64,000 nucleotides of DNA from a bacterium (GTDB lineage Bacteria > Bacillota_I > Bacilli_A > RF39 > UBA660). Under the pieces are notes generated by a model that saw only the letters and a list, made by a program, of their open reading frames with translations, made no database searches and was not told the DNA's origin. The stretch covers positions 8,773 through 72,772 of the forward strand of contig JALFTB010000018.1 in assembly GCA_022779465.1 (NCBI GenBank), written 5' to 3'. Position 1 is the first letter of the stretch. Every line of letters begins with the position of its first letter. Shown here in pieces: positions 10,989 through 14,405 of the stretch. The position numbers and the translations under genes were made by a program.

Positions 10989-11033
10989 TTAATCACCACA
11001 TTAATTATATCATTAAAAAAAATAACCTTATAG

Positions 11034-11324
11034 TTATTTTTTCTCTTTTTTCTCTTTTTGTTTTAACATTTTTTTAGAATTTTGGACTCTTAAATACATT
11101 GATAAACTTTTATCAAATGAAACAGCAAGATTTTCTGGTGATATTTCATATCTTTGTGCCATGTTTATAATAGCATCGGCAACTTCATCTTTTTCATTTG
11201 TATTTAATTTATGTAATGCCCAATCATCTTTATTTGTAAATCCTTGTGCTAGAGCATCTTCTGTATCTTTTTTCTGTAATACTTTTAATTCTAATTCTAA
11301 ATCTTTGATGTCAATTTGTTTCAT
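11034..11324 (-). CDS. hypothetical small protein with K-rich tail
   Basis: ATG 11324 is preceded by GGAGGG that overlaps the stop of the upstream gene. The track start 11384 would overlap the upstream CDS. No recognisable domain. Confidence 0.6.
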   Translation of the reverse strand: MKQIDIKDLELELKVLQKKDTEDALAQGFTNKDDWALHKLNTNEKDEVADAIINMAQRYEISPENLAVSFDKSLSMYLRVQNSKKMLKQKEKKEKK

Positions 11325-11332
11325 AAACCCTC

Positions 11333-12283
11333 CTAATTTGGATATTCTGATTTTAATCCGAAGTATTCTTCCATGGTTATCCAATTACCATTATTATATA
11401 ATTTTTTAGCTAAATCTTTACCGACATATCTTATATGCCATGGTTCAAAGATGTATCCAGTTTTATCTGTTGAGTTTTCTGGATATCTTAAAATATATCC
11501 GTATAGATAACAATTATTTTTTACCCATTTACCTTCAGCAGTATCTTTAAAAGCGGTTGTTATTGTGTTTAAATCAAATGCTAAACCAGTTTGATGTTCT
11601 GAATTTCCTGGTCTTGCTGATGATTTGTCAGCTGCTGCTTTACCTTTTCTTTTAACATAACTGTTATATAAATCTTTTTGATAATCATATGAGCGATATC
11701 CACTTTGAGCCCATAAGTTTAATCCGACAGCTTTAGAATCACTTAACATATCTTTCCATGCATTATATGCATCTTTATCTAATGGTTCTTTAGCAAAGCC
11801 AGAAGAAGGAACTGATTTCCAGACATTTTTAGGTTTCCAGGTGCTTGGCAAATCATATGTTTTATTAACAATTAAATAGCCGTCAACGTAGTAAGCACCA
11901 TCTTTATACGTTATTTGATAACCTTTACTAGAAGTACCAACATACTTTCCATTTGAACTTGTATTGTCACTTTTTTTAGTTGTCTTAGTTGTTTGATTTG
12001 ATGTCGTTGTAGTAGTTGTAGTGTTACTTGATGTCGTTGTACTTGTAGTGGTTGTTAATGTTGTAGTTGATGGTTTTTTATATTCATTTTTTTTATCATC
12101 ACATTTTTTTATCATTCCAAATAATAATATGTAAATAATTAATAAAATAATTATAGTAAATAATAATCTTATATTAAATTTTTTCTTTCTGATATGTTTT
12201 AATTTTAAGATAGTTAAATAGATTATTCCGAGTAAAACAAATCCTATAAATAAATATATTTGTAAATTACTTTCTAGACACAT
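11333..12283 (-). CDS. membrane-anchored VanY-type D-alanyl-D-alanine carboxypeptidase (peptidase M15B)
   Basis: VanY motifs 'SEHQTGLAFD' and 'EPWHIRYVG'. N-terminal TM spans and a Thr/Ser-rich linker 'TTTLTTTTSTTTSSNTTTTTTTSN'. Confidence 0.85.
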   Translation of the reverse strand: MCLESNLQIYLFIGFVLLGIIYLTILKLKHIRKKKFNIRLLFTIIILLIIYILLFGMIKKCDDKKNEYKKPSTTTLTTTTSTTTSSNTTTTTTTSNQTTKTTKKSDNTSSNGKYVGTSSKGYQITYKDGAYYVDGYLIVNKTYDLPSTWKPKNVWKSVPSSGFAKEPLDKDAYNAWKDMLSDSKAVGLNLWAQSGYRSYDYQKDLYNSYVKRKGKAAADKSSARPGNSEHQTGLAFDLNTITTAFKDTAEGKWVKNNCYLYGYILRYPENSTDKTGYIFEPWHIRYVGKDLAKKLYNNGNWITMEEYFGLKSEYPN

Positions 12284-12284
12284 A

Positions 12285-12878
12285 TTAACCTCTATATTCT
12301 ATGTTTTCTTCCTTTAATACAGGAATTGAATTAATTAATTTGTCGTAAGCTTTTTTATAATCATCGGTTGCTATTTTAATTTTATGAATTGATTTATATT
12401 TTATGTTGTCAATAAGTTTTAAATATTCTTCTTGTTGTTTAACACTACTTTCAATACTAAATTTTTGATATTGATGATGCTGTCTTACTAAACGTTTTTC
12501 ATATAATGATGTGTCTTTTAAGTATAAAACTACAAAATAAATATTAAAATCTAATTCTGAAAGTTTTCTTACTAATCTTTCATATACATCATCGAAACTA
12601 TAATCTTTATAACCTAATTTTGTATAAACTTCTTCGGTAAAAAATGTACGATCAAATAATAAATTTAATTCAGTTTCTTCTAATGTTTCCATATAATTTA
12701 ATAGACTTAAATACATAGTTTTATTTTTTTGATATCCGGTTTTAGTTTTGTCTTTTATTCCGGTTAATCTGTATAAATTAGAAGATGATAGATTATCTCT
12801 TAAGAAGTTAGCCATAGTACTTTTTCCAACTCCTTGTGGACCTTCTATTATTATGATGTTTCCTCTTGAATTTTTCAT
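12285..12878 (-). CDS. P-loop nucleoside/nucleotide kinase-like protein (dNK/TMPK fold)
   Basis: Walker A 'IIIIEGPQGVGKST' and 'FDRTFFTEEVY', which resembles the DR(Y/F) region of dNK/TMPK enzymes. Start ATG overlaps the upstream stop (ATGA). GAGGAGGTA RBS. Confidence 0.7.
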   Translation of the reverse strand: MKNSRGNIIIIEGPQGVGKSTMANFLRDNLSSSNLYRLTGIKDKTKTGYQKNKTMYLSLLNYMETLEETELNLLFDRTFFTEEVYTKLGYKDYSFDDVYERLVRKLSELDFNIYFVVLYLKDTSLYEKRLVRQHHQYQKFSIESSVKQQEEYLKLIDNIKYKSIHKIKIATDDYKKAYDKLINSIPVLKEENIEYRG

Positions 12879-13699
12879 TTTACCTCCTCAAATTCGATAT
12901 CGTTATCTTTTAAAAATTTTATAATTGTTTGACTATTAATTGATATACCTAAACTCATATTAAAGTCATCTCCTGGTATAGTACTTTTAATGATATTAGT
13001 GCCTGCTAGCATTCCTAAAACATTACCATCTTTATTTAATAGAACACCACCTTGGGTACCAGTTATTACTTCATTAGATGTTTCAATCATTGAAAGGTTA
13101 TCTTGTTTATCAATAATGTTTCTTGTAATCATTCCTTCAGTAGGAAACACAGGAAAATTCATAACTTCATTGGTAGATATTATTCTTTTGCTTTCTTGAT
13201 CATATTCAAAGGTTTTATATTCTGGAAAAGCAAATCCTAAATTACATACTGATGTTCCTATATCGATTGGTTTGTTAACAAATTTAGGAAATTCATCAAC
13301 TAAAATATTTTTTTTATTTTCGATTTTAACGATTGCTAAATCTAAATATGGATGTTTGATAATATTTAGTTTTCCTGGATTTTTAGCAATATCTATAATG
13401 ACATTGTGAATTCCAACTATTGAATTATCTTTAATACCATATTTTTCTTCAATTTTTTTCTTTTGTCTTTCTTTTGGAGCATTATCTATTTCATTTAAAA
13501 TATTAGGAAATACTTCATTATTATCATCTTCAATTAAAAATAATTCAGCATTTGTTAATGTTGTTAAGATATCACCATTTTTATTTAATACTATTAATGT
13601 AGATAAGCTATTAACAATACTTTTATCTTTATAAATTAGTTTACCTGTTATCAGGGGTCTTATATATTGTAATCCTTTTTTGATTGCATTTCTGAACAT
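12875..13699 (-). CDS. cytoplasmic trypsin-fold (S1/HtrA-like) protein with degenerate catalytic triad
   Basis: Collinear with the chymotrypsin fold: 'GDILTTLTNAELF' (expected TNAHV), 'DLAIVKIE' (Asp region kept), 'ITGTQGGVLLNKDGNVLGMLAG' (expected GNSGGPL). No signal peptide. Confidence 0.65.
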   Translation of the reverse strand: MFRNAIKKGLQYIRPLITGKLIYKDKSIVNSLSTLIVLNKNGDILTTLTNAELFLIEDDNNEVFPNILNEIDNAPKERQKKKIEEKYGIKDNSIVGIHNVIIDIAKNPGKLNIIKHPYLDLAIVKIENKKNILVDEFPKFVNKPIDIGTSVCNLGFAFPEYKTFEYDQESKRIISTNEVMNFPVFPTEGMITRNIIDKQDNLSMIETSNEVITGTQGGVLLNKDGNVLGMLAGTNIIKSTIPGDDFNMSLGISINSQTIIKFLKDNDIEFEEVK

Positions 13700-13742
13700 A
13701 GTCTCACCATATTAATTATATCACAGGGCATAAAAAAAGACA

Positions 13743-13955
13743 CTATTTTGCAGTATCTTTGATGATTTTGATTAATCCAATTACTTCTATAATTAAAGAC
13801 ATTAAAATAATTGATATATTAAGATTATCGCTTGTATCCATATTATGATTTATTATAATAGAAACTATTAATAATAATAGTCCTGAAATTAAAATTATTA
13901 AACCTAAATTACTACTTTTTTCCATTACATTCACTATCCAAATAAAGTATATCAC
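13743..13955 (-). CDS. hypothetical small membrane protein
   Basis: Two hydrophobic spans. Start ambiguous (ATG 13955 or ATG 13925). No recognisable domain. Confidence 0.4.
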   Translation of the reverse strand: MIYFIWIVNVMEKSSNLGLIILISGLLLLIVSIIINHNMDTSDNLNISIILMSLIIEVIGLIKIIKDTAK

Positions 13956-14034: not shown

Positions 14035-14081
14035 GGGTTTCAGGCTTTAGCCGGAGAATATAGATGGGTGGAGATGGTTAT

Positions 14082-14405
14082 ATGAAAACTTTTTATGCTT
14101 TAGGTTATGAAACTGAAACTGGTGTTAAATACTATAAATTAAGACTTGCTAAAGATAAGGAAGTAGGTATTTATTGCCAAAGATGTGATGATTTAACATT
14201 AGAATTAATGACAAAAAGAGATATAAATGAAATCGTGAGAGGAATAAGAAGTGATAGTCCTTTAGGATTAGTTCCTATAACTAGCGTTTCTCAAAAAAAG
14301 ATGATGAAAGAAGATCTTGAAACTATTTTAGAAAATTCTGAACAATATGTGGGAACTATAATTGATAACATTGCATTTGGCAAAAAGCGTGGATTTTCTG
14401 TTTAA
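14082..14405 (+). CDS. hypothetical protein
   Basis: GGTGGAG RBS before ATG 14082. 107 aa. No recognisable domain. Confidence 0.6.
   Translation: MKTFYALGYETETGVKYYKLRLAKDKEVGIYCQRCDDLTLELMTKRDINEIVRGIRSDSPLGLVPITSVSQKKMMKEDLETILENSEQYVGTIIDNIAFGKKRGFSV

Follow-up and report, generated by a model that had tools for sequence, protein, structure and literature searches.

The 64-kb window analysed here, a stretch of 64,000 nucleotides from an uncultured gut bacterium, encodes a 274-aa protein with the fold of HtrA proteases and a dead catalytic site, which descended from a widespread family of ~290-aa proteases with intact triads. We found that its gene, together with that of a 96-aa protein (K97), joined an older locus for a two-TM protein and an LdcB-type peptidase while still catalytically intact, and that, within one genus, the catalytic His and Ser, sometimes the Asp, and the constraint on the S1 pocket were lost several times independently, with the rest of the protein kept under strong purifying selection. 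On balance we lean, if only moderately, towards reading the locus as a genus-restricted envelope operon with a non-catalytic HtrA-fold protein, which probably acts with K97 at the membrane.

Organization of the locus

The host belongs to the class Bacilli and has a genome of ~1.1 Mb with a GC content of ~23%. The operon lies on the minus strand, as do all features described below, and runs from a 60-aa two-TM protein through the pseudoprotease (PsP), a kinase found in some species, and LdcB/VanY to K97. The first gene of the conserved module (13743..13925) encodes a two-TM hairpin protein, and a homologous ORF of 59–75 aa is found 1–93 nt upstream of the pseudoprotease in every relative examined. 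It is followed by the genes for the 274-aa cytoplasmic HtrA-fold pseudoprotease (12875..13699), a 197-aa P-loop kinase-like protein of dNK/TMPK fold (12285..12878), a 316-aa LdcB/VanY-type M15B peptidase (11333..12283) and K97 (11034..11324), an acidic, predicted cytoplasmic helical protein with a Lys-rich tail that forms an orphan family. The pseudoprotease stop overlaps the P-loop gene start in the ATGA at 12875-12878, a single nucleotide separates the stop of the latter from the VanY ATG (12283), and the GGAGG of the small downstream ORF overlaps the VanY TAG. These overlaps and spacings are as the original prediction had described them, including the K-tailed protein whose ribosome-binding site overlaps the VanY stop, but its length from the ATG at 11324 is 96 aa and not 97. 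The unit also extends beyond the four genes named there, since the conserved two-TM gene upstream of the pseudoprotease is part of it.

RNA folding revealed two terminator-like elements. The one after the two-TM gene (13732..13760; a hairpin with a U7 run, −8.5 kcal/mol, z −2.5) has the same layout in several relatives, and in others the genes abut. The other, formed by an A-tract, a hairpin and a U8 run (11013..11044; −9.5 kcal/mol, z −4.8, none of 200 shuffles as good), closes the four-gene unit. Directly upstream of the pseudoprotease ATG lies the 20-nt motif TGATATAATTAATATGGTGA (13704..13723), with an extended −10-like box and a GGTGA ribosome-binding site, and a motif scan placed its second copy, TGATATAATTAATGTGGTGA, before addB (10993..11012); the motif occurs exactly twice in the window, against 0.14 occurrences expected by chance. 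We considered this shared motif as a co-regulatory operator and rejected the idea, as it is the generic extended −10 plus GGTGAT ribosome-binding site layout of these genomes; the TGnTATAAT...GGTGAT arrangement recurs upstream of the same genes in relatives. A consensus promoter and terminator scan was uninformative in this 23%-GC DNA, as it gave 31 sites where 29 were expected and found no terminators rich in GC.

The unit has hairpins resembling terminators and −10 motifs at its borders, and contigs assembled from RNA runs span the PsP/kinase, kinase/VanY and VanY/K97 junctions, these being low-depth metatranscriptome assemblies that may contain DNA. The addB gene does start (10988) 45 nt after the K97 stop (11034), as had been pointed out, but this adjacency is incidental, given the hairpin and promoter-like motif in between and the separation of addBA from the module in basal members. 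The second motif copy probably marks a separate transcription start for addBA.

Fold and catalytic site of the pseudoprotease

The AF2 model of the pseudoprotease (pLDDT 93.9) displays the double β-barrel chymotrypsin fold, and its top Foldseek matches are the protease domains of DegS, DegP and HtrA (E 2e-10, prob 1.00), with TM-scores of only about 0.5-0.67; a PDB profile search also retrieved HtrA, at 1.7e-6. The model includes a helical hairpin insert of 40 aa at residues 48-87. No N-terminal hydrophobic stretch was seen on inspection of the sequence, and the N-terminus is conserved from Met1 throughout the family, with residues 1-37 forming part of the first β-barrel, which supports a predicted cytoplasmic protein devoid of a signal peptide. 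Searches in Pfam and NCBIfam gave no match to a PDZ domain, and the protein ends ~40 residues past the Ser box. Apart from this one, the genome has a single Trypsin_2 gene, for a canonical HtrA.

Alignment of the family profile to this HtrA with hhalign assigned D120 (codon 13340..13342; YLDLAIV versus YADIAVL) to the catalytic Asp, which is kept, and Q216 (codon CAA, 13052..13054), in the sequence G-T-Q-G-G, to the nucleophilic Ser of GNSGG. The position of the catalytic His is occupied by T49 (codon ACA, 13553..13555; ILTTLTNA versus ILTNHHVV), where intact relatives read LTCxH[VI]. The His-Asp-Ser triad is therefore absent from the window protein, in which T49, D120 and Q216 take its three positions, and in some lineages the Asp at position 120 is itself replaced by Asn. 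The window protein scores 25.4 bits against Pfam Trypsin_2 (PF13365; gathering cut-off 27.6) and aligns to profile positions 32-144 only, whereas triad-intact relatives pass with 28.7-44.9 bits over positions 2-144. The original prediction of a cytoplasmic pseudoprotease of trypsin/HtrA fold, with these residues at the triad positions, is thus borne out by the model, the fold and profile searches and the alignment. The His of VGIHNV (H98), which had been singled out as a residue that might restore the triad, is not conserved. We also discarded a conserved pseudogenisation or recoding event, suggested by a TAA inside eight orthologues, which is the natural stop, the alignment having run one codon past it.

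Evolutionary origin and loss of the triad

A profile search with the pseudoprotease family retrieved 2265 representatives, and the sampled members outside the clade almost all carry His-Asp-Ser. This parent family consists of signal-less serine proteases of ~290 aa with intact triads, found at at least 591 loci in Bacteroidota, Acidobacteriota, Chloroflexota and Bacillota, and across these loci it has no conserved neighbours, lying among housekeeping genes. The pseudoprotease occurs in all 24 species of the genus and in none of the 13 sister genera; of 200 further genera in the family, only 4 have a homologue, with 36-42% identity and in no case next to VanY or K97. Each genome of the genus gave a single match, so that no recent paralogue was found in any of them.

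In the 73-sequence clade we count a minimum of 26 changes in the His column and 19 in the Ser column, and 5 in the Asp column; at least four transitions from active to dead are required. Of the catalytic columns, one now holds K, R, S, T, N, Y, G, Q or E, and another E, N, Q, A, T, Y, K or D. Basal members of the module retain His-Asp-Ser and derived ones lost the His and/or the Ser repeatedly, so that one genus presents, within the same four-gene module, proteins with the triad intact, with only the His missing, with only the Ser missing and, in one subclade, with all three residues missing. Six columns, and no others, combine conservation in the broad family with relaxation in the clade, namely H49, P210, G211, S216, P219 and Q231, which are the catalytic residues and the flanks of the nucleophile, the latter read as S1-pocket and substrate-strand positions. 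The dN/dS values are 0.04-0.20 in dead lineages and 0.08-0.10 in intact relatives, with 0.089 for the window protein against an 84%-identical orthologue. Since the triad is dead, the S1-pocket columns are relaxed and dN/dS is low, a non-catalytic role of the pseudoprotease is well supported.

It is highly improbable that the protein is still a protease acting through non-canonical residues, for instance the invariant His116 with the conserved Ser208 or Asp120. H116 is indeed invariant in the clade, the clade and the parent family alike conserve E206, S208 and R193, and the oxyanion-hole glycines G214, G217 and G218 are kept. However, the same residues are conserved in triad-intact relatives and are therefore not replacements, P210, G211, P219 and Q231 lost constraint together with the His and Ser, and the catalytic columns now hold chemically unrelated residues, down to the subclade with no triad residue at all.

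A phage or defence origin was also considered, as triad-intact relatives of 35% identity in one clade lie beside serine recombinase, Bro-N and LysM proteins, and it was dropped, as wider sampling revealed no mobile-element or defence context that recurred consistently. PADLOC returned only generic protease-domain matches to RT-Protease_XI, the PHROGs search gave no match to the pseudoprotease, and a viral fold search recovered generic trypsin folds only.

The conserved module and K97

The conserved unit is a genus-restricted module of the two-TM protein, the pseudoprotease, VanY and the 96-aa protein. More than 30 distinct loci were compared, and all of them keep these four genes together, even in basal members with different flanks; start/stop overlaps or gaps of less than 50 nt between the pseudoprotease and VanY are common in relatives; the synteny on which the original prediction depended is thus present. 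Sister genera have an older 2-TM/(murE)/VanY/addBA arrangement that lacks both the pseudoprotease and K97, with a longer two-TM homologue directly upstream of VanY or murE-VanY, and compared with it, the genus gained the pseudoprotease on one side of VanY and K97 on the other.

The VanY gene product has an N-terminal two-TM hairpin, a Thr/Ser-rich linker and a C-terminal catalytic domain, which matches PF02557 at E 9e-40 (135.9 bits, cut-off 25). SEHQTGLAFD and EPWHIRY in the translation provide the Zn ligands H-x6-D and H and the catalytic Glu, motifs that we take, by inspection against those of LdcB structures, to be the Zn-binding and catalytic ones. With the domain match and the motifs intact, the membrane-anchored VanY/M15B peptidase proposed earlier can be retained. 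The LdcB model NF041194, which bears on LD- versus DD-specificity, is matched at E 1e-38 with 133 bits, below its cut-off of 275. The enzyme is predicted from these features to be intact and membrane-anchored, trimming peptidoglycan stem peptides outside the cell.

The two-TM protein has a K-rich N-terminus, a conserved Glu in TM2 and a C-terminal IIKDTxx, and matches no Pfam or NCBIfam family. A holin identity was rejected, with one of 23 members matching a holin PHROG (E 0.025) and a weak match to holin_phiLC3 (TIGR01598; E 0.019) that reaches 15 bits against a cut-off of 39.7. This bears on an export system in which the two-TM protein would be a holin-like channel, the M15 peptidase would open the wall and the signal-less pseudoprotease would be the secreted cargo. 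Serratia ChiW/ChiX provide a precedent for such holin/peptidase-type export, and a small two-TM protein, a signal-less protein and an M15 peptidase do share one operon here, in addition to the weak holin_phiLC3 match. Nevertheless, we consider it very unlikely: similarity to holins is not consistent among the members, the peptidase has its own membrane anchor and an S/T-rich stalk, features that housekeeping LdcB typically shows, the 2-TM/VanY pair is older than the supposed cargo, and the parent family is uniformly signal-less and found in housekeeping contexts.

K97 always lies downstream of VanY in the clade; its family comprises only 46 protein clusters, all from the same clade, and it is absent from the sister genera examined. 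With addA or addB as the control, the partial distance correlation is 0.57-0.61 between PsP and K97 (Mantel p 0.0005, a test that over-rejects on phylogenetically structured data) and −0.07 to −0.23 between PsP and VanY, the latter aligned over the extracellular domain only. The pseudoprotease also covaries with addB when addA serves as the control (r 0.52), and shared evolution that is fast and saturating may therefore account for some of the PsP-K97 signal. From the co-gain, the identical distribution and the rate covariation, we infer that the likely partner of the pseudoprotease is the 96-aa protein and not the LdcB catalytic domain.

It is possible, and in our estimate the chance is far from negligible, that the synteny is incidental, and that the pseudoprotease, with or without K97, continues the cytoplasmic role of the parent family non-catalytically and has no tie to LdcB, in which case only co-transcription and the slow rearrangement of reduced genomes would preserve the gene order. 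The lack of conserved neighbours in the parent family, the absence of PsP covariation with the extracellular domain of VanY, the VanY and two-TM genes without PsP in sister genera and the tolerance of an unrelated kinase gene inside the operon all fit this view, and inertia can be enough to preserve gene order in streamlined genomes of 1 Mb. On the other hand, the four genes stay together at all loci, even where the flanks differ, the tight PsP-VanY spacing is common, and the pseudoprotease and K97 flank VanY rather than being placed elsewhere. We therefore prefer the envelope operon, in which the pseudoprotease would most likely act at the cytoplasmic side of the membrane, jointly with the 96-aa protein, its selected function being binding, scaffolding or a chaperone-like activity, as in protease-dead DegP or MamO.

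The kinase gene

The P-loop protein contains the motifs GPQGVGKST (P-loop, Walker A) and FDRTFF, and its AF2 model (pLDDT 87) has a P-loop NMP/dN-kinase fold with dCK, TMPK and dNK as Foldseek neighbours (E about 1e-6, TM about 0.6), in accordance with the dNK/TMPK identity first assigned to it. Its sole significant family match is phrog_761 'thymidylate kinase', at 1e-11; it falls below the cut-offs of the family HMMs (Thymidylate_kin 19.8 and dNK 17.4 bits, cut-offs 27; TIGR00041 19 versus 83). We rejected a zeta-toxin/UNAG-kinase identity, by which it would be tied to the cell wall, as no such matches were obtained. The genome has a canonical tmk elsewhere, and a canonical dNK was not found in it.

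The original prediction had proposed an obligate, stoichiometric complex of the pseudoprotease, the nucleotide-kinase-fold protein and a D,D-carboxypeptidase. Where present, the kinase is always translationally coupled between the pseudoprotease and VanY, through ATGA or 8-nt overlaps (in the window and at loci L007, L009 and L121), and it is very strongly conserved, with a mean column identity of 81%. However, it is present in only 10 of the 24 species of the genus, the other 14 keeping the rest of the module, and many modules that lack it are the same in all other respects; in one species it is solitary at another locus, and in genome G001 the sole homologue, 55% identical, lies on a different contig from the module. 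Furthermore, triad-intact and triad-dead pseudoproteases are both found with and without it. The obligate complex is thus already largely refuted and hardly credible, and the kinase is a facultative insert in the module, most likely a nucleoside/nucleotide salvage enzyme that is merely co-transcribed.

Comparison with known systems

To our knowledge, few bacterial pseudoproteases have a history that has been worked out, the main examples being MamO and the Csp proteins. MamO of magnetotactic bacteria is a trypsin/HtrA-fold pseudoprotease that has a TauE domain, is associated with the envelope and magnetosome, binds metal through a di-histidine site and arose beside an active paralogue, MamE (PMC4794232). 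The window protein shares with it a Trypsin_2-type fold whose triad has degenerated and which selection keeps in a non-catalytic role, at the dN/dS values given above for lineages with dead sites, and repeated independent triad loss among related lineages. In contrast to MamO, it consists of a single cytoplasmic domain of 274 aa that stands alone, carries a 40-aa helical insert and is encoded in a peptidoglycan-peptidase operon, and an origin by duplication beside an active paralogue finds no counterpart in the genus, with its single match per genome; among the clade columns there is no conserved His pair besides H116 that could form a di-histidine site. HtrA, DegP and DegS are the closest solved folds, with collinear Asp and Ser boxes, but the window protein lacks their signal peptide, anchor, PDZ domain, His and Ser, and has the extra helical hairpin after the His position. 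DegP keeps chaperone activity without its nucleophile, a precedent for a function independent of catalysis.

CspC and CspA of Clostridioides difficile are dead serine-protease homologues that regulate a pathway ending in a peptidoglycan hydrolase (PMC6636752, PMC7200643). The likeness to our system is that of catalytically dead serine-protease homologues linked to such a hydrolase, a link that is experimentally shown for the Csp proteins, which are of subtilisin fold and spore-specific, and is only suggested here. The 316-aa peptidase itself resembles the M15B enzymes LdcB (YodJ/DacB) and VanY in its VanY domain, intact motifs and membrane anchor, and in the literature we found no description of an LdcB or VanY that always shares its operon with a cytoplasmic pseudoprotease, a two-TM mini-protein and a helical protein with a K-rich tail.

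Implications

The two-TM protein and the loop of the LdcB hairpin would be available at the cytoplasmic face of the membrane. A more specific and rather doubtful proposal is that the pseudoprotease and K97 dock on them and control the extracellular carboxypeptidase from inside, with a control logic analogous to that of FtsEX-EnvC-amidase, although the parts are entirely different. If true, wall trimming would be under the control of an inside-out module made from an inactive HtrA fold, and the genus would provide, inside a single conserved complex, a natural gradation from active protease to pseudoenzyme.

As the organism is uncultured and the proposed function is inferred, the finding has a modest impact for now. 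Still, one genus provides a usable natural experiment on how a protease fold passes to a non-catalytic role, and suggests that the non-catalytic function was already present in the active ancestor. The analysis further reveals a large unstudied family of ~290-aa trypsin-like proteases, which lack signal peptides, are presumably cytoplasmic and form more than 2000 representative clusters, and a group of accessory proteins that accompany an LdcB-type wall peptidase in gut Bacilli that are abundant, uncultured and reduced in genome size.

Organization and transcription of the locus

Five closely packed ORFs occupy positions 11034-13955 on the minus strand of the window, whose genome has 1.07 Mb and ~23% GC. 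They encode a 60-aa protein with two transmembrane (TM) segments (13743-13925), the 274-aa protein that we call the pseudoprotease (12875-13699), a P-loop protein of 197 aa (12285-12878), its ATG sharing an ATGA with the pseudoprotease TGA, a 316-aa VanY-domain protein (11333-12283) starting 1 nt past the P-loop stop, and a Lys-tailed protein of 96 aa (11034-11324), with its GGAGG overlapping the VanY TAG. The start of addB lies 45 nt beyond the 96-aa gene. When the ORFs were re-read, the positions, overlaps and spacings of the original prediction were all correct, and only the length of the Lys-tailed protein had to be amended, from 97 to 96 residues. Between the module and htpG there is a further ORF of 104-113 aa (14064-14405), on the opposite, plus strand, which has no family match and keeps 60% identity in the closest sister species (loci L007 and L008).

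An identical 20-nt motif, TGATATAATTAATRTGGTGA, is found directly upstream of the ATG of both the pseudoprotease (13704-13723, minus strand) and addB (10993-11012, minus strand), these being its two occurrences in the whole 64 kb. It looks like the generic design of the genus, an extended -10 with a short-leader RBS, and this layout recurs in relatives. The 2-TM gene and the 96-aa gene are each followed by a terminator-like hairpin with a U-run, of -8.5 kcal/mol for the former and -9.5 kcal/mol (z -4.8) for the latter. Several relatives have a 2-TM gene that directly abuts that of the pseudoprotease. Assembled RNA-library contigs, of low depth and with possible DNA carry-over, bridge the pseudoprotease/kinase, kinase/VanY and VanY/96-aa junctions, which is consistent with a single transcript.

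Fold and active site of the pseudoprotease

The 274-aa protein scores below the Pfam Trypsin_2 threshold (25.4 bits versus 27.6), but its trypsin/HtrA fold is secure. The AlphaFold2 model, built from 26 homologues, has a mean pLDDT of 93.9, its best structural neighbours in the PDB are protease domains of the HtrA type, DegS and DegP among them (E 2e-10), and the family profile retrieves HtrA from the PDB at 1.7e-6. A helical hairpin of 40 residues (48-87) is a family-specific insert. In an hhalign alignment of the family with the genome's own canonical HtrA, YLDLAIV matches YADIAVL and TGTQGGVL matches SGNSGGPI, so that Asp120 is the triad Asp and Gln216 occupies the place of the nucleophile. 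Likewise, ILTTLTNA aligns with ILTNHHVV, and the triad-intact relatives have LTCxH[VI] in this segment, which places Thr49 at the position of the His. The protein thus has a trypsin fold that lacks a catalytic site, as had been proposed, with His and Ser replaced and Asp retained. The His of VGIHNV, raised as an alternative catalytic residue, is not conserved. The lack of a signal peptide also holds, since the N-terminus is kept from Met1 across the family and belongs to the first barrel.

Searching 1.84 billion representative proteins with a profile retrieved 2265 relatives, 225 of them at E ≤ 1e-30; with few exceptions they have ~290 aa and match end to end. The His-Asp-Ser triad is present in 135 of a sample of 217 aligned family members, and the degenerate ones are almost all in the clade of the window. 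A genome scan located at least 591 loci, distributed over Bacteroidota, Acidobacteriota, Chloroflexota and Bacillota, and no conserved partner gene was found beside the parent-family loci, whose neighbours are unrelated housekeeping genes. The parent is therefore a large family of serine proteases without signal peptides, apparently uncharacterised, and none of the curated NCBIfam models covers it. Examples of members standing alone among housekeeping genes are loci L057-L112 (Bacteroidota, Acidobacteriota, Chloroflexota). Three loci of spore-forming Firmicutes (L004-L006) encode triad-intact, 287-aa homologues with 35% identity. These are preceded by genes for a serine recombinase and a Bro-N protein and followed by genes for multi-LysM proteins, which may represent a mobile-element context with another peptidoglycan-binding neighbour. 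Another genus of the same taxonomic family has a 291-aa homologue outside the VanY module (L128, G205 C57:494-1354), with GQQGGP (Ser to Gln) and intact His and Asp, so that the nucleophile was lost there independently.

Evolution of the active site

We built a tree from 73 sequences of the clade and from outgroups, as well as a smaller one from genomes only. The larger tree requires at least 26 changes in the His column, at least 19 in the Ser column and 5 in the Asp column; losses or regains number at least 13 for His and at least five for Ser, and at least four transitions from active to dead are needed. The triad-intact members (P0049, P0054, P0039, P0041, P0208, P0036 and P0006) are basal or scattered and sit in the same module as the dead ones. 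One subclade has lost all three triad residues (Glu/Asn/Asn); other combinations in the clade include H-D-E and S-D-S, compared with T-D-Q in the window protein. When the 274 columns are ordered by variability, the two catalytic ones come 50th and 69th, while the flanking L45, T46, A51, G214, G217 and G218 are invariant. Residues 67-89 of the helical insert, MNFP (180-183) and H116 would make up a conserved surface specific to the clade. A column-by-column comparison of constraint shows just six positions that the parent family conserves and the clade has relaxed, namely His49, Pro210, Gly211, Ser216, Pro219 and Gln231. They comprise the catalytic residues and a segment read as forming the S1 wall and substrate-binding strand. 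On a Glu216 background, position 49 has repeatedly become Lys or Arg, as would fit a simple compensation of charge at the former active site. The dN/dS values of dead lineages (0.04-0.20) are in the same range as those of intact relatives (0.08-0.10). Judged from these sequence comparisons, the pseudoprotease appears to be a genuine pseudoenzyme under purifying selection, and not a decaying gene.

Distribution and composition of the module

Every one of the 24 species of the genus has the pseudoprotease gene, which occurs in none of 13 sister genera. Related MAGs carry the labels uncultured Bacilli, Tenericutes or Mollicutes, and the DNA is common in pig-gut metagenomes. Only four of 200 other genera of the taxonomic family have a homologue (36-42% identity), three with a His-Asp-Ser triad and one with His-Asp-Gln, and no VanY gene was found beside these. 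The order 2-TM protein, pseudoprotease, VanY, 96-aa protein is maintained in every clade locus long enough to reveal the flanking genes. The P-loop gene interrupts it, between pseudoprotease and VanY, only in some lineages. The obligate complex of protease fold, kinase and carboxypeptidase that was originally proposed is not supported, since the P-loop gene occurs in only 10 of the 24 species, and in one species stands alone between unrelated genes. The locus is thus a genus-restricted, four-gene envelope module, in which the kinase is a facultative insert.

The P-loop protein has a predicted dNK/TMPK kinase fold and is extremely conserved (81% mean column identity), and its gene is missing from 14 of the 24 congeners. 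A canonical tmk is found elsewhere in the window's genome (G000 C23:6876-7367), and no Pfam-level deoxynucleoside kinase was detected in that whole genome, where this gene is the only dNK-like sequence; the simplest reading of its role is nucleoside or nucleotide salvage.

In the VanY homologue, two TM segments form an N-terminal hairpin with a basic loop, followed by a stalk rich in Thr and Ser and by a catalytic domain that is intact (SEHQTGLAFD and EPWH motifs). An RNA-run contig (X25) lacks 27 nt in the stalk (region of position 11979), which suggests that the linker length is polymorphic between strains. The ~1-Mb genomes of the window (G000 C26 and C36) and its relatives have 2-4 VanY/LdcB-type paralogues each, often in tandem (for example G085 C9, G029 C99, G084 C9), which is an unusually large number of M15B peptidases for genomes so reduced. 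Neither the 2-TM nor the 96-aa protein matches known families; the former was considered as a holin, a similarity that was not supported, and the latter forms a family of 46 clusters confined to the window's clade.

In most loci addBA comes next, sometimes past inserted glycosyltransferase genes. A functional tie to the module is not supported, as in two basal triad-intact members a DUF2779 gene follows and not addBA. The stretch between the 96-aa gene and addB holds, in the closest sister species, genes for a GT2 glycosyltransferase and for a 464-aa protein of unknown function (L007 8766-11091, L008 4899-7224), showing that this junction is permissive to insertions.

Partner of the pseudoprotease

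Two sister genera have the order 2-TM protein, (murE), VanY, addB, addA, without the pseudoprotease and without the 96-aa gene. An older locus thus gained the two genes together, one on either side of VanY. We analyzed rate covariation using pairwise protein distances from 18 distinct loci, with species divergence (addA or addB) regressed out. The pseudoprotease covaries with the 96-aa protein (partial r 0.57-0.61, Mantel p 0.0005); the values are -0.07 to -0.23 for pseudoprotease and VanY, and ~0 for VanY and the 96-aa protein. The pseudoprotease against addB, with addA as control, gives 0.52, so that part of the signal with the 96-aa protein may be due to shared fast evolution, and the signal is no more than suggestive. 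Considered alongside the joint gain and the identical distribution of the two genes, it favours the 96-aa protein as the most likely direct partner.

Discussion

The second gene of the module encodes an HtrA-fold pseudoprotease in which catalysis was lost repeatedly and selection was kept. The closest precedents are DegP, MamO and the Csp pseudoproteases. DegP without protease activity is still a chaperone. MamO is likewise a trypsin-fold pseudoprotease whose triad was independently lost several times (PMC4794232), and the Csp proteins work in a pathway ahead of a cortex hydrolase (PMC6636752, PMC7200643). The protein described here differs from MamO, DegP and Csp in cellular location, domain content and partners, and has no recent active paralogue. 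Its selected function would be non-catalytic binding or scaffolding, which may already have been present in the catalytically active ancestor, and together with the 96-aa protein it probably acts at the cytoplasmic face of the module's membrane proteins.
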